From Thermoanaerobaculia bacterium (GTDB taxonomy: Bacteria; Acidobacteriota; Thermoanaerobaculia; Multivoradales; UBA5704), in assembly GCA_036503335.1 (NCBI GenBank), contig DASXXC010000419.1, forward strand, positions 20,363-84,362: a stretch of 64,000 nt of DNA. Direction: 5' to 3'. The position numbers were made by a program, and so were the translations under genes. The notes beneath the pieces were generated by a model. That model had not been told where the DNA came from. It did not search any database and saw only the letters and a list, made by a program, of their open reading frames with translations. This document shows, piece after piece, positions 1 to 15,923 of this stretch (position 1 is the stretch's first letter; each line of letters starts with the position of its first letter).

Positions 1-704
1 TAATTGATATTGCTCAAATCTGGCGCAACCCCTCCGAGATTCAAATGCCCCCAATTGATGCCTAGCAAAAAGACTCCGCCCTTGTCCTGATTCGCCACGC
101 CTGGACGCCCCATTAAATCAAGAGAGATCCGCACAAACACAGGCGATCCGCTGGCGCCGATCAGTGATCTGCTCTCCACCAAAAAACTCTCTTGGCGCAA
201 TCCCGAGGGTAAAGCAATAGGTTCTAATGGCATCATGGCAATGTTGCCGAAGCGCAAAATAGGATTGTTCGATTCCTTTCCGTCATGCGTAATAAACCTG
301 CCGGCGGTTACTACGTCGTCGCCAGGACCTATGTTCAGCTCCCGGACTAGATCGTGAGTTACAAACATGTCGGTTGAAACGTGTTTGAATTTGTACGTGT
401 CGGTCGGGTCGAGCTTATAGATGGCAACGTCATCGCCGTTTTCATGGTGAAACCAGCCATCCTTTGTGGTTTCGACTACATCAAAACCTCCGCCGATTCG
501 GTTAATTCGAATAACCCTACAACTACCTATGTCACGTACAACATGGCCGTTCGTTACGATGTACGCATGATGGAAGCCGGCCAACTGGCCCGGCACGGAA
601 ACCCAAAACCCACAACCACCAGCTCGGCGCCCCTCCTGAGCCGCCTCGGTAGAAGGATAGAAGTAGACCACGCATTCCAGAAACCGGTCATCGATTCTCG
701 GCAT
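1..704 (-). CDS. Trypsin-like (S1 family) serine peptidase, 5' portion. The ORF runs off the left edge of the window, so it is absent from the supplied ORF track. Start ATG at 704.
   Basis: My manual minus-strand translation from 704 downward stays open to position 1. It shows the catalytic-triad contexts TNGHVV (His), DVAIYKLD (Asp) and GASGSPVF (Ser; GDSGGP-like). The underlying DNA is clearly lower in GC than the rest of the window. Confidence 0.5.
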   Translation of the reverse strand, partial: MPRIDDRFLECVVYFYPSTEAAQEGRRAGGCGFWVSVPGQLAGFHHAYIVTNGHVVRDIGSCRVIRINRIGGGFDVVETTKDGWFHHENGDDVAIYKLDPTDTYKFKHVSTDMFVTHDLVRELNIGPGDDVVTAGRFITHDGKESNNPILRFGNIAMMPLEPIALPSGLRQESFLVESRSLIGASGSPVFVRISLDLMGRPGVANQDKGGVFLLGINWGHLNLGGVAPDLSNIN

Positions 705-849
705 CCGACTCCTTTTCCACAGCGTTACAGGCTCACCTCTCGCGGAAAGCGTCTTCCAAGGCTCCAGAGGGTAGCTTAGCAAATTCGTTCTTGGGGTCTC
801 AGGAAACACGGCGCCCTCCCTTGACAATGCTAGAGCGGTATAGTACAGT

Positions 850-1737
850 ATGGTCATTATGGCAAACGTCCTCAGCAACGCCGACCGGACCGCCGTCGTC
901 GCCGCCCTTGTCGAGGGCAACTCGATCCGCGCCACCTCCCGCATGACGGGGGTGGCCCGGAACACGGTCACCAAGCTCCTCCTTGACCTCGCGAAGGTGT
1001 GCGCGGCCTACTCGGATGAGCGGCTGGTGAACCTGCCTTGCAAGCGGCTCCAGGTCGATGAGATTTGGGAGTTCTGCTACGCCAAGGCGAAGAACGTGCC
1101 GCCCGCGAAGAAGGGCGTTTTCGGCTACGGCGACGTGTGGACGTTCGTTGCCATCGACGCCGATACCAAGCTGGTGCCGTCGTGGCTGGTGGGCTCGCGG
1201 GACATCGGCAGCGCGACCGAGCTGATGCAGGATCTCGTCTCCCGCCTCTCCGGCCGCGTGCAGCTCACCACAGACGGCCTGAAGGCGTACATCTCGGCGG
1301 TCGAGGACGCTTTCGGCGGGGACGTGGACTACGGGATGCTCAACAAGATCTATGCCGCTCCGCCGAACGGCCCAGAGACGCGCTACAGCCCCGCCGAGTG
1401 CACCGGCTGCGAGAAGCGGGTGATCGTCGGCAACCCCGACAAGAAGCACGTCAGCACGTCGTTTGTGGAGCGCCAGAACCTCACGATGAGAATGTCCATG
1501 CGGCGCTTTACGCGGCTGACGAACGGCCACAGCAAGAAGGTGGAGAACCACGGCGCCGCCATCGCGGTCCATTTCGCCTACTACAACTTCTGCCGGACTC
1601 ACATGAGCCTCGGAAAGGGACCGGACGGTAAGGGGGTGACCCCGGCGATGGCGGCCGGAGTCGAGTCGCGGAAGCTCGAAATCTCTGACCTCATAGCCTT
1701 ACTTCCCGATTCAGAAAATAAGGCGGGGTCAAAATGA
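850..1737 (+). CDS. IS1-family transposase (single fused ORF)
   Basis: An N-terminal HTH-like region is followed by a DDE region. The C-terminal block ERQNLTMRMSMRRFTRLTNGHSKKVENH and the ...RTHMSLGKGPDGKGVTPAMAAGV tail match the InsB-type C-terminus (ERTHLNIRTHLKRLARKTICFSRSVEMH pattern). The gene is isolated and flanked by non-coding repeats. Confidence 0.8.
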   Translation: MVIMANVLSNADRTAVVAALVEGNSIRATSRMTGVARNTVTKLLLDLAKVCAAYSDERLVNLPCKRLQVDEIWEFCYAKAKNVPPAKKGVFGYGDVWTFVAIDADTKLVPSWLVGSRDIGSATELMQDLVSRLSGRVQLTTDGLKAYISAVEDAFGGDVDYGMLNKIYAAPPNGPETRYSPAECTGCEKRVIVGNPDKKHVSTSFVERQNLTMRMSMRRFTRLTNGHSKKVENHGAAIAVHFAYYNFCRTHMSLGKGPDGKGVTPAMAAGVESRKLEISDLIALLPDSENKAGSK

Positions 1738-1744
1738 GCCAGTA

Positions 1745-1965
1745 CCCCTGAAGGGCGCGACCTCCCCCTTCGAGGGCCGTCAGCGCCCCAAAGAGGGCGC
1801 GAGCTCCCCCTTTTAGGGACGCTACCATCCCCTCGAGGGCGCGACCTCCCCCAAAGAGGGCAGAGCCGGCCCCTCAGAGGGGAATCGCTGCCCTTTTGAG
1901 GGCGCTCGCTGCCCCTTCGAGGGACGCTACAATACCCAAGAAGGGACTTCAAAGAGCCGCATCCG
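1745..1965. repeat. Imperfect tandem array of ~9-10 units of ~22 bp (approximate consensus cc-ttYGAGGGcgcg-N5-cccc)
   Basis: Visible periodicity in the sequence: cccttcgagggccgtcagcgcc / ccaaagagggcgcgagctcccc / cttttagggacgctaccatccc / ctcgagggcgcgacctcccc / caaagagggcagagccggcccc / tcagaggggaatcgctgccc / ttttgagggcgctcgctgcccc / ttcgagggacgctacaataccc. The ORFs overlapping it on both strands translate to repetitive nonsense. Confidence 0.6.
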
Positions 1966-2146
1966 GAATCCACGCGTAGAGGAGGGACCGAAACCATTTA
2001 AGCTCAGCTACTTGGCAATTTCGATCGCCTCCGCCGGCCCTTGAGGGAGGCTGGACGGCGTGTCCGGTGCGCCTCCAACGGTAACCCAGATCGGAGGATC
2101 GGGGAAGAGGGCGTGGAGCGCCGGTCGACCAGCAGCTGGAGAAGCC

Positions 2147-2602
2147 ATGGAACCAAGACTCGTCGATCAATCAGCCTTTGACGTAGTGGGCCTGGAAGTT
2201 GTGACGACCCCAAAGTCGCCCGCGATTTCAGCCCTGTGGGACTCCTTCGTACCCAGGATGCACGAGATTTCCATGTCCGCTCCGGAAAAGGCGGCCTACG
2301 GAGTTATGACGCGGGACGAACGGGATCCGGGCAGCATGCGCTACCTGGCCGGCCTCCCGGTCGCGGGTGCTTCGTCCATGCCCCGGGGCATGAAGTCGGT
2401 CACCATACCCGCCGGGCGGTATGCGGTGTTCAATTCCTCCTTGGCCGAGCTCTCGCGCGACTTCGACTCCATCTACGGAAGCTGGTTGCCAGCCTCGGGA
2501 ATGCGAGTGGAGGGCCGGCCGGTCTACGAGCGCTATGGCGAGGAATTCGACCCCGGCAATCCTCATTCGCTTGTAACAATTCATATACCGGTTGCGCCAT
2601 GA
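2147..2602 (+). CDS. GyrI-like (SbmC/AraC effector-binding type) small-molecule-binding domain protein
   Basis: Begins MEPRLVDQSAFDVVGLEV... and has the overall length and composition of GyrI-like domain proteins. I chose the internal Met start over the 2060 start. Confidence 0.6.
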   Translation: MEPRLVDQSAFDVVGLEVVTTPKSPAISALWDSFVPRMHEISMSAPEKAAYGVMTRDERDPGSMRYLAGLPVAGASSMPRGMKSVTIPAGRYAVFNSSLAELSRDFDSIYGSWLPASGMRVEGRPVYERYGEEFDPGNPHSLVTIHIPVAP

Positions 2603-2789
2603 AGGTGCCAGGACCACCCCGAACTCGGGTCCGTCCTCTTAAACACATTTCTGTATCCCGTAGGGAGGCAGGAAGGGGAGGAGGGGCGAAGGAGTCCGAT
2701 CTCGAGGGGCCGGGCCGTCGCTTATCCAATCGTCATTGAGCGCTACAATAGTATACGATTGCTATAAGTCTAGAGGAGAACAAGCAAAG

Positions 2790-3656
2790 ATGCCGAGATC
2801 AACTAAGCCTCCCGAACCAAGGCCTGCTCAACTCACACCAGATCTGATGGCAAGGGGGCTGCCCAAGCTAGAACGAAGGATCGAGGAGCTTAAAAGCTTT
2901 GACGTGCGCACGCTTAAGAAGCGCGGGGATCCTGCTGCCGAGGCGCTTAAGAATAAGGTCAACGGAACGCTGCGAGAGCTTTTAGGGTACGATACTATCG
3001 AGTACGAAGAGTATAGCACGTACTCTCTGGATACACTGCCGATGAGGATAGGGGGCTATCCGCATCCGATTGAGGACATCTGGGAGGGATATCAAGAGGG
3101 GATTGATCGCGCGGTTACAAAGCTTCAGACGCTCAAGGCAGTGTTTGAGGAGCGTTTAGCTGATTTAGATGTTAGGGACGTCTCTTCGGAGCAGGAATCT
3201 CTCGCACCATCGAGCCCTAGAATATTTCTTGTTCATGGTCATGATGCGGCTACAAAGCTTGGCGTTGCTCGCTTTTTGGAACGGCTTGGGCTGGAGCCCA
3301 TAATTCTTCATGAGCAGGCCAACGAAGGCAAGACCATTATCGAGAAATTCGAGGTTCACTCCGCTGTAGATTTTGCGGTTGTATTGCTGACTCCGGACGA
3401 TATGGGTTATCCGCTCGACAAGCCGGAATTGACCCAGCCTCGTGCTCGGCAGAACGTAATAATGGAGCTTGGATTTTTTCTCGGAAGTCTAGGGCGTGGC
3501 AAAGTAGCCGTTCTCTATAAGAAAGGGGTGGAGATCCCTTCCGACTATCAGGGGGTAGCTTTTATTTCATTGGATGAAAGCGATGGATGGCACCTCCAAC
3601 TTGCTAGGGAGTTGAAGAAGGCAGGCCTTAATGTTGACCTCAACCGGGTTGTATAG
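2790..3656 (+). CDS. TIR-like / SLOG-type predicted nucleotide-binding domain protein (COG4271/MTH538-like C-terminal domain) with a helical N-terminal region
   Basis: C-terminal block IFLVHGHDAATKLGVARFLERLGLEPIILHEQANEGKTIIEKFEVHSAVDFAVVLLTPDD...PRARQNVIMELGFFLGSLGRGKVAVLYKKGVEIPSDYQGVAFISLD is the characteristic COG4271 TIR-like signature. AGGAGA Shine-Dalgarno sequence sits before the ATG at 2790. The gene is markedly lower in GC than its neighbours. Confidence 0.7.
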   Translation: MPRSTKPPEPRPAQLTPDLMARGLPKLERRIEELKSFDVRTLKKRGDPAAEALKNKVNGTLRELLGYDTIEYEEYSTYSLDTLPMRIGGYPHPIEDIWEGYQEGIDRAVTKLQTLKAVFEERLADLDVRDVSSEQESLAPSSPRIFLVHGHDAATKLGVARFLERLGLEPIILHEQANEGKTIIEKFEVHSAVDFAVVLLTPDDMGYPLDKPELTQPRARQNVIMELGFFLGSLGRGKVAVLYKKGVEIPSDYQGVAFISLDESDGWHLQLARELKKAGLNVDLNRVV

Positions 3657-3922
3657 ACTTGGAACGGTGGGTGAGGTCATTGGCCAGACCAACTCGCTAC
3701 TCGTGAGCTTCCGCGAGCGCTTGAGAGGTGTCGTCGACCTCGGCTGGGTCACTCCGATCGTTTCAGCACCCGGCGTGGTGAGAATCCCTTATGAAGCAGG
3801 GGACGGCACGATGGGGGAAGCTGTCGTCGTCGACGCGCGAGCGCTTCGCGATTGGCTGTCGCATCCGCGCTTTCACATGCCGAAGTGAGCCGCGTGCCTC
3901 ATAGGATCGGAACCGATCCCCC

Positions 3923-4816
3923 CTACCACATCAGCTCCGCCGTGACCGGCAGGTGGTCCGAGGTTCCGAGTGGCCAGGCGCGCGAGGCCCGGACCTGCCA
4001 GCCGTGGTCCACGAAGATGTAATCGATCTGCTCCTTCCAGCGCGGAAAGGTCGGACCGATCCCCCTTGAGGCGAGCTGGGCGGCGTTCTCGTGGAGGAAC
4101 GCCCTCATCTCCGGCGAGCCCGGACCCGTGTTGAGGTCCCCGGCGAGGATGTACGGGTAGCGGCTGGTGCGGACCTCCCGGGCCAGGCAGTCCAACTGCT
4201 CCCTCCGGATCTTCGAGTTGAGGCGGCCCCAGGTCGTGAGGTGCGTGGCGTAGAAGCTGATCGTGGCTCCGTCGATGCGGACCGTCGCCTCGAGGAGCGC
4301 CCGCGGCTCGCCGACGCAGGGCAACGGATGTGCCTCCGCCCGCACGATCTGGCCGCGGGTGAGGATCGCGTTGCCGAACTCGCCGCCCCACCGGACATAG
4401 CTCGGGACGAAGTAGCCGTGGAGGCCGGTGCCCGATTCCAGCTCGGCGACCTGATCGCGAAAGCGTGACTGCCAGGTCTTGCGGTGTACCTCCTGCAAGG
4501 CCACGAGGTCCGGGTGGAGGCGCTGGATCGCCTCGGCGATGTGGCGCACGTGATCGCCGTCGATCAGCTCGTCGTGGCCCGCGATGTTGTAGGTCATCAC
4601 CACGAGAGGCCGGCGCTGCGGCGGAAAGCCGGACCGCTCCGGGAAGCTGACGAGCGCGCCGTGCTCGTCGCGCGTCAAGAGGCGAAGGCTGGGGTCGACC
4701 GGCCGGGGCCGGCACTCGCCGGAACGTACGGTGAAGATGAACAAGACCCGGTAGAGAGCGGGCACGAGGAGGAGGGCGAGCACGCCGAGGATCAGTCTTC
4801 GCTTCTTGAGGGCCAT
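3923..4816 (-). CDS. Endonuclease/exonuclease/phosphatase (EEP) family protein with an N-terminal membrane anchor or signal
   Basis: Hydrophobic N-terminus (LILGVLALLLVPALYRVLFIF) followed by EEP-fold motifs (VMTYNIAG, LQEV, GDLN, SDHLPV). Confidence 0.85.
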   Translation of the reverse strand: MALKKRRLILGVLALLLVPALYRVLFIFTVRSGECRPRPVDPSLRLLTRDEHGALVSFPERSGFPPQRRPLVVMTYNIAGHDELIDGDHVRHIAEAIQRLHPDLVALQEVHRKTWQSRFRDQVAELESGTGLHGYFVPSYVRWGGEFGNAILTRGQIVRAEAHPLPCVGEPRALLEATVRIDGATISFYATHLTTWGRLNSKIRREQLDCLAREVRTSRYPYILAGDLNTGPGSPEMRAFLHENAAQLASRGIGPTFPRWKEQIDYIFVDHGWQVRASRAWPLGTSDHLPVTAELMW

Positions 4817-4959
4817 CGCTATCCGATCTCCAGGTCTCTGCTCTCCAGGTGGCGGCCCTGGACAGCAGGGCCCGGATTGTAGCGAAGCGTGGAGCGAAAC
4901 AGCGGCGGGCGAGGCCTAGAGGAGAGCGCTGGGTGGCTTGGACGCCTGGACGCCCTGCT

Positions 4960-5754
4960 TCAACTGGCGGAGGAAATCGACCAGCGCCTTGCCAGGGTCG
5001 GGCTCTCCGGAAGAGAGGACGTCGATTCCCAGCCGGCCGAGCACCTGCTGATCGATCGGATTGGGGAAGCCTGGAAGAGATAGGAACGGGGCCGCGCGCC
5101 GTCGCGGCCGACCCGCTCCCAGAGCTTCGCGAGCTTATAGAACAGATAACGGATGTTGAAGTCCGAGAAGCTGTAGCCGATGAAGAGCACGGAACGGCCC
5201 AGGACGTCGGCGCGGAGCTTCAGGTCGAGAGCCGTCTGAAACTCCAGCCGGTCGAAATAGCTCGATTCGGTCAGCACGAGCGAGGAATCGTCGTCGAAGT
5301 CACCATGGAACTTGACGATCTGCGTGACGCCCTCGCGGATCTTCACCATGTCGTCCACCTTGGCGATCCGGGTGTAGCTCCGCTCGATCCGTTCGTGAGC
5401 CGATTCGAGCCAGCGGTCATAATTGGTTGTATAGAGGATCGGGAAATCGAGATCGAGGATGAGGTTGTGGACCTCGGAATCCTCAATGCGGATATCCTTG
5501 GAGTGCCACTCCCGGTCCATGAGACTGCGGAGCGGGCCGATGCTGCCTTTCTTCAATACGTAGTACTCGGCCAGGCTCTGGAAGTTGCCGTAGGAACGGA
5601 AGATGTCGGGATCGAAATCCAGATCCCTGGCCATGAGCGCGATCAACTGGGACCACGAGGGGAGCTTCAATCCCATGGAGACCCCGGCTCCGGCGAAGAG
5701 AATCACCCGCCGCTCCGCGAGGGCGGCGATCAACTCGTCTGATGAATGCGCCAT
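4960..5754 (-). CDS. SIR2-like (SIR2_2/DSR/ThsA-type) domain protein. The C-terminal ~55 aa are probably out of frame; an alternative reading ends at 4916.
   Basis: ILFAGAGVSMGLKLPSWSQL, YTTNYD, KFHGD, SSLVLTESSYF and RSVLFIGYSFSDFNIRYL are the SIR2_2 signature blocks. The annotated tail (SPIRSISRCSAGWESTSSLPESPTLARRWSISSAS) looks unnatural. The -1 frame instead gives PNPIDQQVLGRLGIDVLSSGEPDPGKALVDFLRQLKQGVQASKPPSALL up to a TAG at 4916-4918. Confidence 0.75.
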   Translation of the reverse strand: MAHSSDELIAALAERRVILFAGAGVSMGLKLPSWSQLIALMARDLDFDPDIFRSYGNFQSLAEYYVLKKGSIGPLRSLMDREWHSKDIRIEDSEVHNLILDLDFPILYTTNYDRWLESAHERIERSYTRIAKVDDMVKIREGVTQIVKFHGDFDDDSSLVLTESSYFDRLEFQTALDLKLRADVLGRSVLFIGYSFSDFNIRYLFYKLAKLWERVGRDGARPRSYLFQASPIRSISRCSAGWESTSSLPESPTLARRWSISSAS

Positions 5755-6317
5755 ACCGGCTCCAGCTTCGCGCAGAGCGCGTCGAGCGCCTTGCGGCGCA
5801 TGGAGATCTCGTCCTTGATCTCATCTCCCATCTCTGCGTAGGTCTGGGAATAGCCGTCTGGGACGAAGAGTCTGTCCCAACCGAAACCGGCTATGCCCTT
5901 GGGCTCGGGAGCGATCCGGCCGCGGACACACCCCTTCGCCTGAACGATCTTGCGGCCGTCGCAGTATCCAACCATCGTACAGGCGAAGAGGCGCTGCTCC
6001 TCCTGCTTCCCGAAAAGCCGCAGGAACCTCTCGGGCCTCGACCGTTCAGGGCCCAGACCCATCCAGAAGCTCTGGGTCAGGCCGCCAGGCAGGCCGTTCA
6101 GGCACCGCACGTACAAGGCGGTGTGCTCGACCAGCAAAGGTAACCGGACCTTCTGAAAAGCGTCCAGCGTCTTCTGGCGGACGAGCCTGGGGAGGCTGTG
6201 AGTCTGGATCTCCTCGATCCCCAAATTCTTCCAGACGACGTCGATACCGCGGGGACCGAGGATGCTCTGAGCTTCCAGAACCTTTCGCTCAGACTGGGAT
6301 ACTAGAAAGAGCCGCAC
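5730..6317 (-). CDS. Ham1/RdgB/ITPase-family protein, divergent
   Basis: The C-terminal block GFGWDRLFVPDGYSQTYAEMGDEIKDEISMRRKAL matches the Ham1 GFGYDPIF...TFAEM...ISHR..AL region, and the fold is recognisable throughout. Canonical positions are substituted: SQS for TGN, EHTAL for EDSGL, and SMR for SHR. It overlaps the SIR2 gene start by 25 nt. Confidence 0.75.
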   Translation of the reverse strand: MRLFLVSQSERKVLEAQSILGPRGIDVVWKNLGIEEIQTHSLPRLVRQKTLDAFQKVRLPLLVEHTALYVRCLNGLPGGLTQSFWMGLGPERSRPERFLRLFGKQEEQRLFACTMVGYCDGRKIVQAKGCVRGRIAPEPKGIAGFGWDRLFVPDGYSQTYAEMGDEIKDEISMRRKALDALCAKLEPVWRIHQTS

Positions 6318-6345
6318 GCGAGGGTCTCCGTTTCAATGCTCTTGC

Positions 6346-8970
6346 TCACGGCAGAGCCGCGGAATTTTCGAAGCGCCGGCGCGGTGGAGCGCCGACGATG
6401 CTCTCCGGCTCGTCCAGTGGACGAGGAGGCAGAGTGAACTGGCTGATGCATCCTTGGGCGCGGACCCGCTCCAACCACCGCTCCGCCTCTTCCTGAGAGA
6501 GGCCGCTCACCACCAGCGTATCGATCAGCTTTTGATACTCCTCACGCAAGGTCGTGGCGAAGGTGACCGGATCGTCGGACCCGATACAGACCGAGATCGG
6601 CTGCAGGGGCGTGCCGTCCCGGGGAGGAGAGAGGCGCCAGAGCGGATGCCGGCCGAGGTCCCGCAGGTCTCCGATCAGGAAATTCGAGCTCGGGTTCGCC
6701 TCGATGACGATGCCGTGAGCGCCGACGTGGCGGATCAGCTCCGACTGGATCGTGGCGAGCGCCTCCCCCTCCGGCTCGGTCCGGATCCATTCGAGCTCAT
6801 GTCCGTTCTGGAACACCACGGGATCGGTCAGGAACTGCACGAGCAGGTTACGGCGCTTGCGGTCCTCGATCTCTCCCCGGGCCACTCCACCCCGGAAGGG
6901 CCGGCCGCTCGGGAATCCGACTTGGCAGAGGACCTCGGGCTTGTGCAGATCCTCGACCATCTTCTCCAGGCGGTCGGCGGGATGCGGTTTGCCGAAAATC
7001 TCTTGGGAAAGGCGGGCGATCTCCCGCATCAGGTGGCTGACCCTGCGGCCATCCGGAGGGCTCACGCGGGCCAGGGAATACCAGCCCCACTCCCAGACCA
7101 GATCGAACAGGCGCTCCTCCTTGGGCATCACCACCGAGCCGGTCCGCTTCGCCCAATCCAACGGATCGAGGCCCAGGGCCATCGCGTGCCCGAGCCGGTC
7201 CCCCTCCTGGAGCGGCAGGAACTCCATCGCTTCCGTCACCCGGCGGAGCCCGGTGAGCAGATGAGCGAAATCCTCGCCCGCGTGTACCGTGCTCCGCAGC
7301 GCGGGCGCGGTCTCCTCCGACATCTCCTGAAGGAAGCTCGAAGCTTCCCGGCCGGCGGCGTGAACGTATTGGAACACGGGCACCAGGACCCAGGTGGGAA
7401 CCCCCGCCTCGTCCGTGCAGATGTCGAGCCCGCGCAGCAGAAACAGAACGCTGGGGTGGCGCTGGATGGCCGTCGCCAGCGCCAGCGCCTCCCGCTTCTT
7501 TTTCTGGTAGTAAATCGAATAACGCCAGCCCGTCCGCTTGTGACGCGGATCGGCATAGGAATCGGCCCAGCGGTTTCCGAGCCTCCCCTCCGCCGCGTGG
7601 CCGCCCCGGTCCCGGGTGAAATGGAGAATGAGACCGACCTCGACAGGATGATCCCTGACCCGCTCACACCGCTCCTGGAGGGAGCGGGCGGCCAGCTCCG
7701 TGTCCTTGAAGAGCGTGACGTGCTCGGAGACCGACTCGGACGGCGCGGTCCGGAGCTCCAGATAGCGCAGGCCATGGCCGATCCCCTCCAACTGGGCCGT
7801 GCTCTCGATCTGCACCTTCGTCCCCCAGGCTCTCGCCGTACGGATCCGGCCATAAAAGCGGAAAAACCATTGCAATCCCGGAGTCAAGGGGCGCTGCACG
7901 AGGTGCTGGTAGAAGATGCCGCGCACCCGGATCACCTGCCAGAACAGAGATTCGAAAAGCGCGTCTTTCTTGCCCTTGCCGGCCCTGTCCTCCAGATGCC
8001 ACAGGCCCGCCGCCACGAACCGGATCTCCGGTGTGGGAACGACTGGCGACTCGGATGCCGGAAAATAGCGGGCGATCGGATCGAGCTGCTGGATCTCGGA
8101 GGCACACGTCGGCTCTTTCCATACCGTCGCTCCGCTCAGGCGCGCATAGAGTCCCCGGACCTCGGATAGCTTGATCCCATGCTCAGGCTCCAGCCGGCCA
8201 TGGACGAGCTCCCGGGCCACCGCCTGCAGGAGAGCCGCTCCGGTCGCTCTGAGCTCCGAAGCCAGGACCCCTTGCACCCATTGGGCAAAGCCCATCTCCC
8301 GCGCGTCGCGATCGGTCAGGAACGCGCCCATGAGCACCCGCACGAGCGCGGCCCGGGCCAGCCATTCGCCGAGCTCCTGCCCCTCATTGAATGCGGCGCC
8401 CGGGCTGCGGAAGTCCGAGGCATCGAGGCGCGAGTGCGCCATCACGAGGAGCACTCCCACCCAGAGATCCGTGAATTCGGAGGCGGCTCCGAAGTGCAGA
8501 TGAAGCTGCCCGAAACCGCGGTCCTTCAGCATGCGGTCGAGCCGGGGGGACACCGTGGCGACTCTGCGGCAGGGAGGGGGGCCCTTCTCGATCGCGGCCA
8601 GGAGCAGATCGGGAGGGAGCGAGAGAGCGATCCATTGCCAGAAGATCCTGGAGTCCGCTCCGGAGCTGTCGGGAGTCTGGAGCTCCTCCGGCAGCCTGGG
8701 CCACACCGTCGCTCCGTCCACCCGCAGGCACCGGGCGGCGATGGACCGCAACAGCGCCTCCAGAGGGACGTCGGTCTTTGACCGTTCCCCCTTCTCCGAG
8801 AACCAGATGTAATCGCGCAGGTTGGTGATCTCGTCGATCGAAAGCGAACGCGAGCGGAGATCGTTCTCCACGCACCGCCAGAAGTCGCCGGTCGGTCCCT
8901 TCAGGTCCGGGCACAGGTTCGTGACGTTGGTCCGGAACGCAAGCTCGGTGGCAAAGGGATACGACGCCAT
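6346..8970 (-). CDS. rdrB: Large adenosine-deaminase-fold protein, RdrB-like (RADAR deaminase candidate)
   Basis: LHLHFGAA (HxH metal ligands), STVHAGEDF (HAGE motif) and SVCIGSDDPVTFATTL (SLNTDDP-like), with IEANPSSN immediately upstream, are the adenosine/AMP deaminase signature blocks. They are spread over an 874-aa protein with large insertions. It lies 66 bp downstream of the big ATPase on the same strand. Confidence 0.7.
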   Translation of the reverse strand: MASYPFATELAFRTNVTNLCPDLKGPTGDFWRCVENDLRSRSLSIDEITNLRDYIWFSEKGERSKTDVPLEALLRSIAARCLRVDGATVWPRLPEELQTPDSSGADSRIFWQWIALSLPPDLLLAAIEKGPPPCRRVATVSPRLDRMLKDRGFGQLHLHFGAASEFTDLWVGVLLVMAHSRLDASDFRSPGAAFNEGQELGEWLARAALVRVLMGAFLTDRDAREMGFAQWVQGVLASELRATGAALLQAVARELVHGRLEPEHGIKLSEVRGLYARLSGATVWKEPTCASEIQQLDPIARYFPASESPVVPTPEIRFVAAGLWHLEDRAGKGKKDALFESLFWQVIRVRGIFYQHLVQRPLTPGLQWFFRFYGRIRTARAWGTKVQIESTAQLEGIGHGLRYLELRTAPSESVSEHVTLFKDTELAARSLQERCERVRDHPVEVGLILHFTRDRGGHAAEGRLGNRWADSYADPRHKRTGWRYSIYYQKKKREALALATAIQRHPSVLFLLRGLDICTDEAGVPTWVLVPVFQYVHAAGREASSFLQEMSEETAPALRSTVHAGEDFAHLLTGLRRVTEAMEFLPLQEGDRLGHAMALGLDPLDWAKRTGSVVMPKEERLFDLVWEWGWYSLARVSPPDGRRVSHLMREIARLSQEIFGKPHPADRLEKMVEDLHKPEVLCQVGFPSGRPFRGGVARGEIEDRKRRNLLVQFLTDPVVFQNGHELEWIRTEPEGEALATIQSELIRHVGAHGIVIEANPSSNFLIGDLRDLGRHPLWRLSPPRDGTPLQPISVCIGSDDPVTFATTLREEYQKLIDTLVVSGLSQEEAERWLERVRAQGCISQFTLPPRPLDEPESIVGAPPRRRFENSAALP

Positions 8971-9036
8971 CTCCGCGCAGATCTCCAGCGTGGGGATGGC
9001 GAGGGTGCGGGCGGCGGCGTTGTTGGTGGTCAGGGC

Positions 9037-11955
9037 TTATCCCCCAGAATTCTCATCGAGGTCGGGAAAAGCAGCACGCAACTGGGCTGTGAAGCCTTCC
9101 AGTGCGAAAGCGATCCGCTCTTGTGGGTCTCTGAGCCCTTTCTTGAGGAGCCGTTCTTGGGCTTGTTTCAACTCCTCGGAATTAGGCACCAGCTCACCGC
9201 CAAGAAGCTCATTGACCGGATGGATGTTGCTCAATTCCGCCGGGCTCATGCTGCTATCGCCCTTCTTGATCAGCATGCCAATCTTTTCATTGTCTATGAA
9301 GGGTGCAAGGCGATCTGCGCGAAGGTTGCGTATGCGCGAAGCTCTAGAACGTGATTCCTTAGGGTCACCTAGAAAGTTGCTCAAAGTGCTCTTGGCGAGG
9401 AGCGTGGTTATCGCTTGTTTCACGATGCTATGGTCTTGTGTTGCAAGGAATCCGGATTCCGGTGCAAGAAGAACGGGCAATCGAATAAGCCAGCTTTTGA
9501 TCCTTTCTGCTCGTACTGTCACGGCATTGGAGTCCTTAACGAGTTGTTCTATGGCTTCTGCCAATTTAACCCAAAGCTCGGAGCCAATCTCAACCTCGTC
9601 GAGAGAATCGGGAATGGTCTTGAGACCCGTGTCAGTTAAAGATTGCTCCTCGGAACCCGACGTCTCGGATTTGCTCGACTCCTGTGGTGGCGGTGGAGGT
9701 GGCGGATCCGATTTCTCAAAGATTTTGCATATCCCCGCGATCCAGGTATAGAGCAGCAAAGCTCTTTGATGCGGCTCGTCCCCTAGATACCACAGGTCAC
9801 TGCGAAGAGCGGAGTCCCAGATGTGACTGAGCTGATCGAACTCCCAGAAGCTAGTCCAGGCAGGGGTAATCCAAGGGACCTTTACTGCGTCACGAAGCCC
9901 CAGATCCCAGGCAGCTACGGCCCAACCCAGGTCCAGTGAGTTGGGCGAGAGAGAATGAGAGCCGACGATGCCTCCCCACCTCTCCAAGGCCAGGAGGTCA
10001 TGCAGCAGTACGATCAGGGCCTTGGTCCGTTCGGCGATCTCAATCGGGCGCTCTCTTTCCAGGTCCCAAAAGGCCCAGGAGCGCCGATAGCTAGCGTGCA
10101 GCGTGCAATCGTGATCGCGAAACGGGATGATCCTGCCGGGAACGGATATGCTTCGAGCCTCGACAAACCTCATAGCTTGAAGCCATTCCTCGTCTGGGTT
10201 GACTCCGAGCGCCTCTACGAAGCGCTCCCTGTAACGAATTGACAACAGCTCGTCTTCCTCCATGGCCCGGTGAGTCTCCATTCCGACCAAATTTATAAGC
10301 ATGGTGAGGTGTGATTTCCACTTATCCTCGGGGCCATGCGGAGTCTCGCGATGAATAAGGTCACGTATGGAAAACCATAGGTCGGCAATATAGCGTGGAG
10401 TTGCCTTGAGCAGCGTAGAGCCCGTGTAGGGGAAGATGCGTTCCTGGTCCGTTTTTTCTCTGCTCTTCTTTTCGAGTAAATTCTGTTCCTCGAGTGTGCT
10501 TGCTCTTGCGCCAGGTTTGGAGGAGGTCAATTCTTGAAGGCGTACATTGAAGCAAAGGAATTCGCAAAAATTGGGAACAATCTTGCCTGCGATGGATTGT
10601 AGCTTGTGCCTTTTGACCTTTTCGAGTTGTTTCTGTTCTTCGGATTCCTCGGGTTGAGGGGGTTGTTGTTGCCCTGTTTCTTTTCTGTCTGGCTCAAAGG
10701 CCGTTTCAATATCTATCGGAAGCTGCTCAAGGAGGTCTCGGAGTCTTTCTTTGTCGTTATTCCAGCCGTTTTTCGTATCCTCATTTCTGAGGTGGCGAGG
10801 ATGAAAATTGAGAGCTTCCCATACTTTTAATGCTCCCAGCTCAATCCGCTGCCCCGGAGGCACGAGCTTGCGGATCGCATGGCCGGATAAGGATCGCGCT
10901 ATACCTCGGATCTCCGAGGAAGACAGAGACAGGTAATCGGGTGTATAAGCGGCTTCGAGCACCTTGGCAAAGTCGCCGCTCTTCCTCAAGTTGAACATCA
11001 GCTCCGCCATCCGGACGTCACCCAAAACTATGATGAAAAGGCGGGGTGAGGTGACCATGCGGATCAGGTGCAGAAGCTCCAGGGAACGCAGAGGGTTCAG
11101 GTCATAGTCGTCTACCGGGAGAACGAAGAACGGGTTCTTGACGTAACTGCTCTTGCCGAGCTCCTGCGCGAGGTCATCGAGAGCCTTGTTGAGGGCTGCG
11201 TTGATCCCTACACGCGCATCCTCGACGCGAGTGACTTCAGCGGCGTAAGCGTCAGGGTCCAAGGCGCTGGCGCGAGCATCCACGTTACCGTCCCAGGCGA
11301 TGGCAACGTCTGCGGCCAATTTTCGTAGCCCATGTAGAGCCTTTTCCCCCGACGCGAGGCTCAGAAGGCCACTCTGGTAAGTTTTGTCATCCTTTTTCTG
11401 ATTAAAACGAGTAGCGGCTCGGTCAATCCGTGCTAGAATAGCCGCGAGGAGATTGACGGGGCGCGGTAGTGGTTCCATGTCCAAGGGATCAAGCCATACG
11501 AGGCGATCCTGCAGCTCTTCCAGAGATTTCCCTATCGCATCAGGGGTTTTCTGCTGATTATTTGTACTGGCATCCGGACCTTGCGATTTTGTGCCGGCTT
11601 TATCATTCGTAGTTGTCTCTTCTTTTTTGTCTCTTCTCTCGTCGCTGGCCTGGCAAAACCTGTCAGGATCGAGGAAGGCCTCGAACAAAGAAACGAGGAC
11701 CGTGGACTTGCCTGTCCCTCGTTTTCCCGAGACGAAGACCAGCCGGCTCGACCGGAAACGATCCGGGGTGGCGGGGAGGTTGGGAGGGTTCTCCGCGGAC
11801 TTCTGCCTGGCGGCCTCATCGACATCACGTCGAGCGTCTTTCAGCGCGTCGAGAATCTTGCGAAAGGCGCTCTGCTGGGAGGCATTCAGGAGATCCCAGC
11901 GCAGCGGCCGGGCTTCGGGGCGTAGGACGTAAGGCGTCTTCTCGTCGGAAGCCAT
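9037..11955 (-). CDS. rdrA: Large P-loop NTPase, RdrA-like (RADAR ATPase candidate)
   Basis: Walker A motif VFVSGKRGTGKSTVL at about aa 75-88 and Walker-B-like FFVLPVDDYD. It is about 970 aa, the first gene of the string, and the gene body is lower in GC than its neighbours. Confidence 0.65.
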   Translation of the reverse strand: MASDEKTPYVLRPEARPLRWDLLNASQQSAFRKILDALKDARRDVDEAARQKSAENPPNLPATPDRFRSSRLVFVSGKRGTGKSTVLVSLFEAFLDPDRFCQASDERRDKKEETTTNDKAGTKSQGPDASTNNQQKTPDAIGKSLEELQDRLVWLDPLDMEPLPRPVNLLAAILARIDRAATRFNQKKDDKTYQSGLLSLASGEKALHGLRKLAADVAIAWDGNVDARASALDPDAYAAEVTRVEDARVGINAALNKALDDLAQELGKSSYVKNPFFVLPVDDYDLNPLRSLELLHLIRMVTSPRLFIIVLGDVRMAELMFNLRKSGDFAKVLEAAYTPDYLSLSSSEIRGIARSLSGHAIRKLVPPGQRIELGALKVWEALNFHPRHLRNEDTKNGWNNDKERLRDLLEQLPIDIETAFEPDRKETGQQQPPQPEESEEQKQLEKVKRHKLQSIAGKIVPNFCEFLCFNVRLQELTSSKPGARASTLEEQNLLEKKSREKTDQERIFPYTGSTLLKATPRYIADLWFSIRDLIHRETPHGPEDKWKSHLTMLINLVGMETHRAMEEDELLSIRYRERFVEALGVNPDEEWLQAMRFVEARSISVPGRIIPFRDHDCTLHASYRRSWAFWDLERERPIEIAERTKALIVLLHDLLALERWGGIVGSHSLSPNSLDLGWAVAAWDLGLRDAVKVPWITPAWTSFWEFDQLSHIWDSALRSDLWYLGDEPHQRALLLYTWIAGICKIFEKSDPPPPPPPQESSKSETSGSEEQSLTDTGLKTIPDSLDEVEIGSELWVKLAEAIEQLVKDSNAVTVRAERIKSWLIRLPVLLAPESGFLATQDHSIVKQAITTLLAKSTLSNFLGDPKESRSRASRIRNLRADRLAPFIDNEKIGMLIKKGDSSMSPAELSNIHPVNELLGGELVPNSEELKQAQERLLKKGLRDPQERIAFALEGFTAQLRAAFPDLDENSGG

Positions 11956-12248
11956 GAATCCTCACTCTTTGGAAAAAGAAAGGGTCATTCTCTTAAAAGT
12001 ATAGAGAGGAGGATCTCGCTCCTGTCAAGGATTCTTGCTGATAGAAATATTCATCTCCGCGAAGGGAAGCGGTGAGGCCTCCGCCAAGAGATAGACGGAC
12101 GCTGGTTGGAAGTTCCGCGGGGATTCGGGAGAAGAGGTAGACCCCCTCCGGGATCAGAGGAGGACCCGGTGTATAATCGTCCGGCACTGACTCCTGGCGC
12201 TTACCCGCATCGGCTCGTCCCGCCATCGTCTTCGCAACGGAGGCCGCT

Positions 12249-13136
12249 ATGAGAGCACATCGTTTCGCCTGGCTGCCGGTCCTGGTTTTCGCCCTCCCTG
12301 GCTTCGGCGCAACCCCGGCCCCCCCGGTCTCGGGCCAGTTCGTGCTGGACGGAAAGGCGGTGGCGGTGAGCGAGGTCGCGGCTTTCCGGATGCGCGATCA
12401 GTTCAATCCCCGGACCCTCGAGACCTATGTGATGCTGACCGCCAAGCCCGTGGACCGGGCGGCGATCAGCGCCTCCCTCGATCCCTATAGCGTGGCGATC
12501 AACGATCCCGCGACGCTCCACGCCGACTACATCGCTTTCAGCGTGCGCGCCAACGGCGAGGTCGGCATGAACGCTCACGTGGGCGGGGTCCAGTACATCG
12601 ACACCTCAGGCAGGATCATGGGCCAGCCCGGCTCTCTGGTCGCGAAATGCAGCGAGAACACGCCGACGCGCGTCGCTTGCCACGTGAAGACGGAGAAGCC
12701 GGTCAAGACGATGGACGGGCCGACCTTTTCGCTGGACCTGAGCTTCGAGGCCGACGTGCAGTCCCGCAAGCCGGGCAAGCCCCTGGCCAAGGAGGACCAG
12801 GCCCCCGGCCAGGCGCTGCTGGCGCTGCGGGCCGCGGTCGCGGGTGACGACCTGGCCAAAATCCTGGCGCTTCTCACGCCTGAGCAGGCCAAGAGCTACC
12901 AGGAGGATTGGCAATCGCCGGCGGAGAATCTCAAATCCGCCAAGGACATCCTGAACGTCCAGCTCCCGAAGAATCCCAAGATCACCGGCGGCGAGATGCT
13001 GGCCGACGACCACGTGGTGCTGGAGGTCGAAGGCGAGCCGTACGAGAACGGTCACATGCTCTACCTCGTGGAGATGCGGCGGATCGACGGCCGCTGGCTC
13101 TACGAGCGGGCGAGCGTGGCCGGGATGTTGCGCTGA
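12249..13136 (+). CDS. Secreted hypothetical protein (signal peptide)
   Basis: N-terminal MRAHRFAWLPVLVFALPGFGA signal-like segment, coding-like composition, and a terminator hairpin directly downstream. Confidence 0.55.
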   Translation: MRAHRFAWLPVLVFALPGFGATPAPPVSGQFVLDGKAVAVSEVAAFRMRDQFNPRTLETYVMLTAKPVDRAAISASLDPYSVAINDPATLHADYIAFSVRANGEVGMNAHVGGVQYIDTSGRIMGQPGSLVAKCSENTPTRVACHVKTEKPVKTMDGPTFSLDLSFEADVQSRKPGKPLAKEDQAPGQALLALRAAVAGDDLAKILALLTPEQAKSYQEDWQSPAENLKSAKDILNVQLPKNPKITGGEMLADDHVVLEVEGEPYENGHMLYLVEMRRIDGRWLYERASVAGMLR

Positions 13137-13142
13137 GGCGCC

Positions 13143-13164
13143 CGGGATTTTGAATCCCGGGCGG
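13143..13164. terminator. Bidirectional hairpin terminator between convergent genes
   Basis: cccgggattttgaatcccggg is a perfect 7-bp stem with a T-rich loop. It sits between the stop of the 12249-13136 gene and the stop of the OYE gene. Confidence 0.5.
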
Positions 13165-13170
13165 GCTCCA

Positions 13171-14271
13171 TCAGACCGCCGCGGTCACCGCGTCCCGGGT
13201 CGGATAATCGATGTACCCCTTCTCGCCGCCCATGTAGAACGTCTCGCGGTCGGGGGTGTTGAGGGGGACGCCTTCGGCGAAGCGCTCGACCAGGTCCGGG
13301 TTGGAGAGGAAGAGGACTCCGAAGGAGATCAGGTCCGCCTCATCCTTGGCCAGAGCCGCGTTGGCGGTCTCCTGGTTGTAGCCGCCGTTCAGCATGAAGG
13401 GCCCCTGGAAGAGCGAGCGCAGCAGGGGCGCGACCGGCGACGGGGTCGAGCCGATCGCCTCGGTGACGTGCAGGTAGGCGAGGCCGAAGCGGTTGAGCTC
13501 CCGGGCGGCGTAGCCGAAGGTGGCCGCGGGGTCGGAGTCGCTCATGCTGTTGTAACTCCCGGGGGGGGAGAGGCGTACGCCGACCCGGTCCGCGCCCCAG
13601 ACGCCGGCCACCGCCTCCGCCACCTCCAGCAGGAAGCGGGCGCGGTTCTCGATCGGGCCGCCGTAGGCGTCCGTGCGGTGGTTCGAGCCGTCGCGGAGGA
13701 ACTGGTCGATCAGGTAGCCGTTGGCGCCGTGGAGCTCGACGCCGTCGAAGCCCGATTCCAGGGCCGTCCGGGCGCCGTGGGCGAACTGCTCGACCACGCC
13801 GGCGATCTCCGAGGTCTCCAGGGCGCGCGGGACCCCGAAGGGCTTGGGACCCTCGGAGGTGAAGGTCTGCCCCTCGGCCGCGATCGCCGACGGCGCCACC
13901 GGCAGGGCCCCGCCCGGCTGCAGGAGCGGATGGGAGATCCGGCCGACGTGCCAGAGCTGGGCGAAGATCCGGCCGCCGCGCGCGTGGACGGCGTCGGTCA
14001 CCCGGCGCCACCCCTCCACCTGGGCGGCGTCGTGGATGCCGGGCGTCCCGGGATAGCCCACCCCCTGCGGCGAGACCTGGGTCCCCTCGGTGATGATCAG
14101 CCCCGCGGAGGCCCGCTGGGCGTAGTAGGTGACGGCGAGGCCGCTCGGCACGTTCCCCGCGTCCGCGCGGTTGCGGGTCATGGGGGCCATCACCATCCGG
14201 TTGCGCAGGGTATAGGGTCCCACCTGGACCGGGGAGAACAGAGTCGGGTGCTGCTCCTGCTTGTCGCTCAT
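13171..14271 (-). CDS. Old Yellow Enzyme family NADH:flavin oxidoreductase (N-ethylmaleimide reductase-like)
   Basis: TLFSPVQVGPYTLRNRMVMAPMTR..., HGANGYLIDQFL and RTDAYGG are OYE hallmarks. I chose the Met-11 start (GGAGG Shine-Dalgarno before it). Confidence 0.9.
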   Translation of the reverse strand: MSDKQEQHPTLFSPVQVGPYTLRNRMVMAPMTRNRADAGNVPSGLAVTYYAQRASAGLIITEGTQVSPQGVGYPGTPGIHDAAQVEGWRRVTDAVHARGGRIFAQLWHVGRISHPLLQPGGALPVAPSAIAAEGQTFTSEGPKPFGVPRALETSEIAGVVEQFAHGARTALESGFDGVELHGANGYLIDQFLRDGSNHRTDAYGGPIENRARFLLEVAEAVAGVWGADRVGVRLSPPGSYNSMSDSDPAATFGYAARELNRFGLAYLHVTEAIGSTPSPVAPLLRSLFQGPFMLNGGYNQETANAALAKDEADLISFGVLFLSNPDLVERFAEGVPLNTPDRETFYMGGEKGYIDYPTRDAVTAAV

Positions 14272-14356
14272 TGTGGAGCCTCCTTCGATTCGGGTTTGCA
14301 TTGTTGGTGGGTCAAAGGTACAGGGGTGAACTTTCTAGGCAAAAAATTTTTGAGGC

Positions 14357-14761
14357 TCAGCTCCCCAGCCTTCCCAGCAGCCGGGTGAGGGCCTGGCGGT
14401 CCTCCTCGCCCAGCCCGGCGAAGACCTCGCGCTCGGTCTCGCCCACGATCCGCACGGCCTCGGCGTGGCGCTCCCGGCCCGCGGGGGTCAGGGCGGCCCG
14501 CACGGAGCGCCGGTCGGCGGGATCGGGGAGGCGCTCGACCAGCCGGTCGGCCTCCAGACGGTCCACGAGCTGGGTGATGTTCGAGCGGACGCAGCAGCAG
14601 CGGTCGGCCAGATGGCTGAGGGGCAGCGGCTCGTCGGTGTCCGCGAGCGCCTTGAGCACGTTGAGCTTGGCGAGGGAGAGGCCGATCGTCCCCAGGGCTC
14701 CTTCCAGCCTTCCCTCCACCTCGTGCGCGGCGCCGATCACCCGGAACGCGAGATCGTTCAT
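14357..14761 (-). CDS. MarR-family transcriptional regulator
   Basis: Winged-helix MarR pattern (LSLAKLNVLKAL...LSHLADR...SNITQLVDRLEADRLVERLPDPADRRS). Adjacent to the OYE gene. Confidence 0.85.
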   Translation of the reverse strand: MNDLAFRVIGAAHEVEGRLEGALGTIGLSLAKLNVLKALADTDEPLPLSHLADRCCCVRSNITQLVDRLEADRLVERLPDPADRRSVRAALTPAGRERHAEAVRIVGETEREVFAGLGEEDRQALTRLLGRLGS

Positions 14762-15146
14762 GGGTGAATCATACATCCGTCATCTGTTCAGCGCAAGAGG
14801 CAGGATCGGAGGTAGAATCCCCACCTGATGAACGCGGCTCGCCGTACTCTCGGCCGCTGGGTGCTCGCGGCTCTTCTCGAACGGGGTTGCGACCCCACCA
14901 CGGCCCGTATGCCCCGGCGGGTCTTCAGCGTCCGGCCGCTCGACGCGCGCGAGATGGCGGAGCTCAATCCCCTGGTCTGGCCTCTCGTTCCCGTCTCGAA
15001 CCTGCTGCCGCTGCCGCGTCCGGTCCGCCGGCCAGTCTATGAGGTCTAGATCCAGCAGTGACTCGCAACCCGGAGGCCGCCTTCCCGTACGGGTTGAAAG
15101 AGAATAGGCTCTCCCATCATTCCGTATTGACAGAGCGAGGAACGGC

Positions 15147-15908: not shown

Positions 15909-15923
15909 GCCGAGGAGAAAGCC

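Follow-up and report, generated by a model that had tools for sequence, protein, structure and literature searches.

In this study we analysed a stretch of 64,000 nucleotides (nt) of DNA from a Thermoanaerobaculia bacterium (contig DASXXC010000419.1, positions 20,363 to 84,362; hereafter the window) and found that its gene at 2790..3656, which we call the TIR gene, encodes a protein of two parts, an all-alpha N-terminal domain (N-domain) and a C-terminal TIR domain of the CAP12/Pycsar effector clade. In all features that could be tested the protein is a member of PF10137 and of PDC-S35, a family already catalogued as a candidate defence system. We lean towards the view that it acts alone in abortive infection, as an NAD+ glycohydrolase (NADase) that would be switched on by assembly. 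An original prediction, made from the sequence of the window, had called the gene recently acquired, stand-alone cargo of a defence type, with a C-terminal TIR-like/SLOG domain of the COG4271 kind.

Pfam recognises a single domain in the protein, PF10137, at residues 144-262 (E=7.7e-37). The score of 126.4 bits lies far above the gathering cutoff of 24.7, and positions 1-118 of the 119 in the profile are covered. No LOG or SLOG model was matched among Pfam and NCBIfam at E<=0.01, and there was no LOG structure in the top 50 fold matches. The domain had thus been rightly described as TIR-like and of the COG4271 type, whereas the labels MTH538 and SLOG that had been given to it do not suit a member of the PF10137 clade. 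MTH538-type TIR-like domains are those of Pfam PF08937, the ThsB type, and SLOG/LOG is a family distinct from PF10137. A SLOG/LOG identity was also rejected on genomic grounds, the contexts of the gene being variable and mobile instead of showing housekeeping synteny. A LOG-type family with housekeeping synteny, the outcome that the original prediction had set against itself, is therefore not what we found, because both the LOG/SLOG match and the synteny are missing.

We built an AlphaFold2 (AF2) model of the whole protein on 114 homologues. It consists of two domains and a disordered linker, with a predicted local distance difference test score (pLDDT) of 90.4 and a predicted template modelling score (pTM) of 0.54. 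Within the TIR domain the pLDDT is mostly 90-97 per 10-residue block, with ~70 at residues ~171-190. The low pTM beside the high per-domain confidence suggests that the relative arrangement of the N-domain and the TIR domain is not fixed. When compared with the PDB by Foldseek, the top ten matches were all TIR-STING chains (9lmq, 7un8, 9lmr; E 6e-6 to 2e-4), followed by SPARTA TIR-APAZ, MyD88 and SARM1, and at a lower level by nucleoside 2-deoxyribosyltransferase-like proteins, DNPH1 and the CMP N-glycosidase BcmB. A profile of the family, compared with the sequences of the PDB, matched TIR-STING 9lmq (7e-10), SfSTING 7un8 (3e-8) and PycTIR 8jsj (2e-4).

In SfSTING the residues R78 and N80, together with the catalytic E84 of helix alpha-C, hold NAD+, and D110 completes the active site of the neighbouring subunit in trans (Morehouse et al., PMC9402430). 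In a hidden Markov model alignment these four residues (R78/N80/E84/D110) correspond to R220/N222/E226/D252 of the window protein: R218-A-R-Q-N-V-I-M-E226-L-G is placed on 'P-R78-D-N80-V-V-F-E84-F-G', and 'IPS-D252-Y' on 'LPT-D110-L'. All of the 114 homologues have E226, D252, R218, Q221 and G228; R220 and N222 are each kept in at least 90%. Because the equivalents of the SfSTING residues are conserved, the active site is intact and of the enzyme type, and for the same reason the protein is probably an assembly-activated NADase. If D252 is supplied by a neighbouring subunit, as in SfSTING, the active site is probably complete only on TIR-TIR packing, and by this analogy the alignment implies that activity depends on such packing.

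The TIR clade in question provides the killing effector of CBASS (TIR-STING, TIR-SAVED) and of Pycsar (PycTIR), where it is an NAD+ glycohydrolase. Of the two roles that the original prediction had offered, sensor or NAD-processing effector, only the second is retained, since every characterised relative of the clade is an NAD-cleaving effector. Cap12/TIR-STING proteins (SfSTING 7un8; 9lmq) share the PF10137 clade and the conserved active-site residues and are the closest solved structures. Cap12, however, begins with its TIR domain, which precedes a STING or SAVED domain that binds cyclic dinucleotides, and a CD-NTase gene adjoins; in the window protein the TIR domain is C-terminal, behind an unrelated helical domain, and STING and SAVED are absent. 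No CD-NTase occurs among the eight flanking genes of the TIR gene, and the NCBIfam Cap12 models reach 40 bits against a cutoff of 450, over residues 189-266 only. PycTIR (8jsj) likewise has a C-terminal PF10137 TIR domain in ~290 residues, and the PADLOC model of PycTIR matches residues 185-264 (E=2.4e-8). But PycTIR has an N-terminal domain that binds cyclic nucleotide monophosphates (cNMP) and works with a pyrimidine cyclase, and the window protein has neither. Thoeris needs a ThsB-type TIR and a sensing effector; here we find a PF10137 TIR and a neighbour with SIR2 only. Because the defining sensor domain and signal synthase are absent, the protein belongs neither to CBASS nor to Pycsar or Thoeris. 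Its mode of action is probably like that of Cap12 or PycTIR, if the analogy is followed.

The whole protein is matched by PDC-S35 of PADLOC-DB, best by the model PDLC05005 (E=7.2e-79; residues 24-287 on positions 7-262 of 264). Four more models of the family (PDLC05007, 05004, 05006 and 05003; E=2.6e-70 to 7.8e-47) span the long helix of the N-domain and the TIR domain. The full-length match, the single-gene organisation and the embedding of relatives in restriction-modification operons are the same as in PDC-S35. We saw no architectural difference; the window copy itself lies outside restriction-modification, BREX and DISARM.

The N-terminal half had been described as an uncharacterised helical region, and we can agree with this. 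The AF2 model is all-alpha, Foldseek gave no significant match of the N-domain to a PDB fold (best E=0.2, to generic helical bundles), and no Pfam model was found for it when 29 N-domains were compared at E<=5, where scattered coiled-coil noise alone appeared. Modelled alone, the N-domain reaches a pLDDT of 91.7 and a pTM of 0.82, with helices at residues 17-36, 48-65 and 70-75, an ordered loop at 76-93 and a long helix at 94-132; at residues 132-137, in the linker, the pLDDT is below 50. The N-domain evolves faster than the TIR half, with mean pairwise identities of 38% and 61%, respectively, when the 114 full-length homologues are compared with one another.

A profile made from the 29 N-domains was searched against a collection of 5.8 billion proteins. 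It returned 82 proteins, mostly of ~264 residues, with PF09509 (Hypoth_Ymh/TIGR02391) after the N-domain. In these fusions the Ymh-HEPN effector begins at residue ~141-143, matching the linker position of the TIR protein. The C-terminal Ymh domains match the PADLOC models Aga_HEPN, a HEPN effector associated with short pAgo, and PD-Lambda-3_B, and one member contains the HEPN RNase motif RNPRAH. Ymh-family (PF09509/TIGR02391) HEPN proteins have the same N-domain of ~130 residues as the window protein, the same linker position and a toxic C-terminal effector, which in their case is a predicted RNase. When 1.84 billion cluster representatives were searched exhaustively with HMMER, the N-domain was found in 1596 proteins. 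Among 126 shorter ones the partner was Ymh 32 times, a PF10137 TIR domain 29 times, and once each a DpnII-MboI restriction endonuclease (REase) and GGDEF; the rest were a few scattered weak matches and ~60 N-domain-only proteins or fragments. A fusion to AbiJ (Abi_C) was not seen among the N-domain matches, the 126 representatives included. Since the N-domain is fused alternatively to Ymh, PF10137 TIR and DpnII-MboI, we read it as an exchangeable front end for alternative toxic effectors, with a fixed linker position. The TIR half is also found behind several unrelated N-termini, and a modularity of both halves would be as expected of a sensor-plus-effector design.

The closest description in the literature is that of AbiJ-NTD1, an all-alpha domain of ~140 residues fused to Ymh, DUF4145, REase, HKD, kinase and 'flavodoxin-fold nucleoside deoxyribosyltransferase' domains (Anantharaman et al. 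2013, PMC3710099). The N-domain fits it in being all-alpha and in its Ymh, REase and flavodoxin-fold fusions, as far as a comparison by published description only can tell. In the same paper Ymh was classed as a HEPN family and the principle of a variable N-terminal module joined to a toxic C-terminal domain was set out (PMC3710099).

Two observations concern the Ymh fusions themselves. On two contigs (L092 4218..5012; L093) the N-domain + Ymh-HEPN gene has a single in-frame stop exactly in the linker. For the interrupted gene a pseudogene, a site of readthrough and a toxin split on purpose are all conceivable; a true two-gene form of N-domain and Ymh was considered for L092 and rejected, as there is just one in-frame stop. 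Such fusions also occur in defence islands. In Bradyrhizobium liaoningense (L094 1346..6795), for instance, an N-domain + Ymh-HEPN gene stands directly 3' of a predicted CBASS-like operon made up of a 375-aa gene without annotation, an E1/E2/JAB gene and a gene for a patatin; the island has integrase and AlpA genes and is bordered by a GMP synthase-like gene.

As a mechanism we propose that the N-domain replaces the STING, SAVED or cNMP-binding sensor and would hold the TIR protein inactive, either by separating the TIR domains or in some other way. Upon infection a cue, possibly a phage protein or an altered host component, would cause the N-domain to drive assembly, and D252 of one subunit would complete the active site around E226 of another. 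NAD+ would then be hydrolysed and depleted, and the infected cell would stop growing before phage release. The TIR gene would work independently of its neighbours. NADase chemistry, activation by oligomerisation, sensing by the N-domain and an anti-phage function are what we infer.

The family is large and wide-spread. Among 8000 candidates scored there were 4825 homologues at E<=1e-3, and the top 120 are nearly all 280-300 residues long and cover >90% of the query. The JGI label on homologues is 'predicted nucleotide-binding protein', the description used for COG4271. In contigs chosen as one genome per species, relatives are encoded by at least 594 stretches (594 of 600 pattern matches), from Proteobacteria, Chloroflexota, Bacteroidota, Planctomycetota, Verrucomicrobiota, Acidobacteriota, Nitrospirota and candidate phyla. 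For a survey of neighbours the open reading frames (ORFs) of 87 loci were clustered all against all, and 150 immediate neighbours were scanned with PADLOC. No universal neighbour family was found among the 87 loci, hence no conserved partner gene, and no cyclase or other signal synthase recurs near the homologues surveyed. Given also the single-gene match to PDC-S35, the gene can indeed be called stand-alone. At 7 loci (L020, L036, L039, L049, L053, L054, L066) it lies inside a type III restriction-modification operon, with the methyltransferase gene Mod on one side and the helicase-nuclease gene Res on the other, and an MNT/HepT toxin-antitoxin pair follows; type III methyltransferases account for 7 of the 150 immediate neighbours (best E=1e-168). 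Other neighbours of homologues are CopG/UPF0175 toxin-antitoxin genes, DDE transposases, an IS91 element, a group II intron and integrases. The TIR half occurs on 1152 PLSDB plasmid records (Klebsiella 617, Escherichia 368), and 181 relatives were found in IMG/VR viral contigs. In reference phage genomes there are TIR-half relatives only; from record size and naming these phages are putatively P2-like. We read these contexts, which include plasmids and predicted prophages, as those of mobile cargo of a defence type and not as those of a housekeeping gene. The PDC systems, PDC-S35 among them, were predicted from 'guilt by embedding', with BREX, DISARM and type I restriction-modification as the surrounding systems (Payne et al., bioRxiv 10.1101/2024.01.29.577857).

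On IncF plasmids a 'nucleotide-binding protein' (WP_000963206-type) has 53% identity to the window protein over the TIR half and is assigned to PDC-S35 by PADLOC too, but its N-terminal ~140 residues are unrelated and an overlapping 96-aa ORF lies upstream. It may therefore represent a two-gene form. The TIR relative on the E. coli IncF plasmid L105 (4277..5456) adjoins the repressor gene pifC, a gene for a P-loop nucleoside triphosphatase (NTPase) of 741 residues and vapBC. On the Klebsiella IncFIB/HI1B plasmid L106 the 96-aa ORF, the P-loop NTPase gene and vapBC are present again, with no pifC annotated. Judged by its position beside pifC, the 741-aa P-loop NTPase gene is probably pifA, which acts in T7 exclusion. 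PDC-S35 relatives with only the TIR half in common are found on roughly a thousand plasmids of enterobacteria.

Several points weigh against a single-protein NADase of abortive infection. The strongest matches of the exhaustive search (P0203-P0217) are proteins of 550-2020 residues in which the N-domain occurs 2-4 times. The long linkers between the copies are acidic, proline-rich, of low complexity and internally repeated, and no significant Pfam domain and no effector was found in these proteins. Because multi-copy proteins without an effector carry it, the N-domain may be a general protein-protein or assembly module instead of a dedicated phage sensor. It has no fold or family match, so that its sensing role is purely inferred. 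TIR domains can also synthesise nucleotide signals or use substrates other than NAD+, and the chemistry lies beyond the reach of sequence alone. The window copy is outside any restriction-modification system, with no recognisable mobility gene directly attached. The PDC systems were presented as candidates for future functional study (bioRxiv 10.1101/2024.01.29.577857); in the literature we found neither an experimental test of the PDC-S35 family nor a paper naming it, and a search for 'COG4271' gave nothing relevant. Lastly, at 5 loci (L012, L013, L016, L017, L032), in Burkholderia, Paraburkholderia, Rhodopila and two uncultured proteobacterial metagenome-assembled genomes, a tyrosine recombinase gene follows downstream with a 4-nt overlap, in translational coupling. 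The same coupling is seen on a 12.4-kb plasmid of B. pseudomallei (L103 3696..5536) and a 20.5-kb plasmid of P. avellanae (L104 6001..7841). This sub-clade consists of full-length homologues of ~43% identity, near partition genes on the small plasmids, and the pair may be a mobile two-gene unit or have a maintenance role.

Hence it might be possible that the protein serves the maintenance of mobile elements, as a toxin-like stabilisation or addiction factor or in competition, and that any anti-phage effect is secondary. The recombinase overlap, in two plasmids and five chromosomal loci, would fit such a role, as would the 1152 plasmid records and the gene-sized foreign insert that the window gene represents. 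We nevertheless hold it to be unlikely. Neither the window copy nor most homologues have an antitoxin-like partner or a recombinase beside them, the embedding in type III restriction-modification and the position in the pifC region are typical of defence cargo, and plasmids commonly carry defence genes, so that plasmid carriage fails to discriminate.

A little less probable still is an orphan second-messenger effector, with an N-domain that binds a signal made elsewhere in the cell, be it a cyclic nucleotide, a base-modified nucleotide or a host metabolite. The clade of the TIR domain is that of signal-activated effectors such as Cap12 and PycTIR, and a dITP-signalling KomB/KomC pair lies 1.3 kb away; moreover, a TIR-SAVED effector is reported in a 2025 preprint to respond to a conserved host signal without a cyclase of its own. 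The all-alpha N-domain, however, is unlike the SAVED, STING, CARF, cNMP-binding and Ham1 folds, it also occurs in the multi-copy proteins that lack effector domains, and the missing signal synthase near homologues argues in the same direction.

We give a similarly low probability to a different chemistry, in which the substrate of the flavodoxin-fold TIR domain would not be NAD+ and the protein would be a nucleotide or nucleoside N-glycosidase, a 2'-deoxyribosyltransferase-like enzyme or an enzyme acting on nucleic acids. The lower fold matches to nucleoside 2-deoxyribosyltransferase-like proteins, DNPH1 and BcmB point that way, together with the fusion of AbiJ-NTD1 to a 'flavodoxin fold nucleoside deoxyribosyltransferase', and the 'TIR nuclease', in PMC3710099. 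Yet the best matches in sequence and fold are all proven NADases (TIR-STING, PycTIR), and all the residues by which SfSTING holds NAD+ (R78, N80, E84, D110) are conserved.

The last alternative concerns the SIR2 gene nearby. Its geometry had been given correctly: the SIR2 gene (4960..5754, minus strand) lies 1304 nt from the TIR stop on the opposite strand, and the EEP gene (3923..4816, minus strand) stands between them. The start of the SIR2 gene overlaps the 3' end of a Ham1-family gene (5730..6317, minus strand) by 25 nt. Both belong to a minus-strand operon (4960..11955) that continues with an RdrB-like adenosine deaminase (6346..8970; NCBIfam RdrB 190 bits, below cutoff) and a weakly RdrA-like ATPase (9037..11955). 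The SIR2 protein of 264 residues has a SIR2 domain only, without a SLOG or Macro sensor, and its relatives of 58% identity are found in triads of adenosine deaminase, Ham1 and SIR2 in Pseudomonas. The Ham1 protein of the window has His65 in 'VEHT', the same Asp-to-His change as KomB. In the Kongming system (KomA/KomB/KomC) the SIR2 NADase KomC is activated by dITP that is bound to KomB, a catalytically dead Ham1 protein; the same work mentions, without a test, RADAR-like systems in genetic linkage with KomBC (10.1101/2024.12.20.629578). The closest SIR2 locus (L096, 82% identity) contains RdrA/RdrB-like, Ham1 and SIR2 genes in almost the same arrangement and lacks both the TIR and the EEP gene. 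The operon of the window is thus predicted to be a RADAR-like sensor/deaminase coupled to a dITP-activated NADase of the Kongming KomB/KomC type. Since a KomB/KomC-type pair accounts for the SIR2 gene, the TIR gene is independent of it, in line with the original prediction, which had noted no obvious coupling of the two; its analogy to Thoeris was not borne out. A Thoeris-like pair, in which the TIR protein would make a cyclic ADP-ribose type of signal for the neighbouring SIR2 protein, is contradicted by the context data and highly improbable: the genes do lie within 1.3 kb and ThsA profiles match the SIR2 protein with their N-terminal half (E=1.4e-30), but only positions 12-213 of 478 are covered and no sensor domain follows, the genes are convergent with the unrelated EEP gene between them, the SIR2 relatives occur in Kongming-type triads and the adjacent Ham1 has the KomB-type His65, the closest SIR2 locus has no TIR gene, no SIR2 neighbour recurs among the 87 TIR loci, and the TIR domain is of the PF10137 effector clade and not of the ThsB type.

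With regard to its origin, the TIR gene stands in a trough of low GC content that is itself gene-sized, as the original prediction had noted. In 100-nt windows the GC content is 0.47-0.56 over ~2700-3700 vs 0.60-0.72 on both flanks; the ORF has 0.511 and, at third codon positions (GC3), 0.526, and the mean GC content of the window is 0.676. Host-like genes of the window have a GC3 of 0.87-0.97 (IS1-like 0.87, EEP 0.92, OYE 0.94, PFK 0.96; also PspA and AAA). Because of this difference in GC3 (0.53 vs 0.87-0.97) the gene is read as a recent horizontal import into a high-GC genome. The description as recently acquired defence-type cargo agrees with the foreign GC3 and with the mobile and defence contexts, the defence role being predicted. 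In the two closest relatives (73% and 67% DNA similarity) the similarity starts and stops at the borders of the ORF, 2790-3657. On four independent metagenome contigs both the gene and its neighbours are identical to those of the window. The neighbouring modules have GC3 values of their own (TIR 0.53, RdrA-like 0.60, GyrI-like 0.69, KomB/KomC/RdrB-like 0.79-0.83, EEP 0.92), and values so sharply different point to separate acquisitions. The RdrA-like ATPase may have been exchanged or acquired separately, at 0.60 vs 0.79-0.83 in its operon partners. The EEP gene is probably an unrelated host gene outside both defence modules, because it is absent from L096 and its GC3 is host-like. The N-terminus of the protein, a member of the endonuclease/exonuclease/phosphatase (EEP) family, is hydrophobic (MALKKRRLILGVLALLLVPALY..) and resembles a signal peptide or membrane anchor.

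The ORF is intact, from the ATG at 2790 to the TAG stop at 3654-3656 (288 codons, 288 residues in the ORF listing). An in-frame TTG upstream at 2736 would extend the product to 306 residues. Homologues from many organisms begin their alignment at residue 1 ('MAR....P.P..A.L'), which makes the ATG at 2790 the better start; on public contigs the gene callers picked a later Met, giving 269 residues. The coordinates of the features are collected in Table 1.

Table 1. Features of the TIR gene and its immediate surroundings, in positions of the window
Feature	Positions	Strand	Basis
GAGGAG, Shine-Dalgarno-like, 11 nt 5' of the ATG	2773..2778	+	Read from sequence
Complete coding sequence, 288-aa N-domain + TIR protein of the PADLOC PDC-S35 family	2790..3656	+	ORF listing, PDLC05005 match
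N-terminal all-alpha domain, residues 1-132; proposed regulatory/sensor or assembly module	2790..3185	+	AF2
Variable low-confidence linker, residues 133-143; effector-exchange junction	3186..3218	+	AF2, Ymh fusions
TIR domain of the CAP12/Pycsar (PF10137) clade, residues 144-288	3219..3653	+	Pfam, PDB profile matches, Foldseek
Active-site motif R218-A-R220-Q-N222-V-I-M-E226-L-G228; putative catalytic E226 at 3465-3467	3441..3473	+	SfSTING alignment, conservation
D252 in 'IPSDY', equivalent of SfSTING D110	3543..3545	+	Alignment, numbering of PMC9402430
Inverted repeat spanning the stop codon, 11-nt arms TGACCTCAACC / GGGTGAGGTCA, 23-nt loop	3635..3679	+	Repeat search

The inverted repeat at the end of the gene is possibly a weak terminator hairpin without a T-run, of unproven significance; no terminator-like site was called there. 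A small ORF of 85 residues (3631..3888, plus strand) shares 26 nt with the 3' end of the TIR gene. It sits in the high-GC flank, was called as a gene on public contigs (for example L001 5144..5401) and has no family match on record; it may be spurious. Three ways of linking the TIR gene to its surroundings were rejected. For a composite transposon, a second copy of the IS1-like transposase (850..1737) is missing, as the 295-aa ORF at 12249..13136 has no protein similarity to it, and no long DNA repeat was found within 1-16000 of the window. For an integron cassette with attC, or for flanking direct repeats, there are just short repeats at chance level at ~2400-4100, and the DNA homology ends at the ends of the ORF. 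For an operon with the upstream GyrI-like gene (2060..2602), this gene adjoins no homologue, and its GC3 is 0.69 vs 0.53. Directly 3' of the IS1-like transposase gene, at 1745..1923, there are GC-rich tandem units of 21/42 nt with short palindromes CCCC-N4-GAGGG, an array that resembles REP-like or hairpin repeats.

In conclusion, the single-protein NADase switched on by assembly is the reading that we favour. New in this study are the mapping of the catalytic and trans residues of SfSTING onto the PDC-S35 family and an unmodelled N-domain common to Ymh-HEPN fusions, a nuclease fusion and giant multi-copy proteins; the architecture of a variable N-terminus and a toxic C-terminus had been set out in 2013. 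The island is now parsed into one independent TIR gene and a separate RADAR-like/KomB-KomC operon, with no TIR-SIR2 pair of a Thoeris-like kind. If our reading is true, the gene would be a minimal immune system of one protein of 288 residues, in which a TIR NADase is controlled without a cyclic-nucleotide sensor. With 4825 homologues, >590 genome loci and >1100 plasmid records, clinical IncF plasmids included, one function established for the family would annotate thousands of genes. As a more speculative idea, which we put forward only tentatively, the N-domain might be a widespread switch for infection sensing or assembly that can be plugged onto a TIR NADase, a Ymh HEPN RNase or a DpnII-type nuclease. 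The sharing of the N-domain with HEPN and nuclease fusions offers a route to what stand-alone abortive-infection proteins sense, and if one shared ligand or trigger were to activate all of them, the gene would be a compact model of TIR assembly under a non-nucleotide sensor and the family would represent a new principle of phage sensing.

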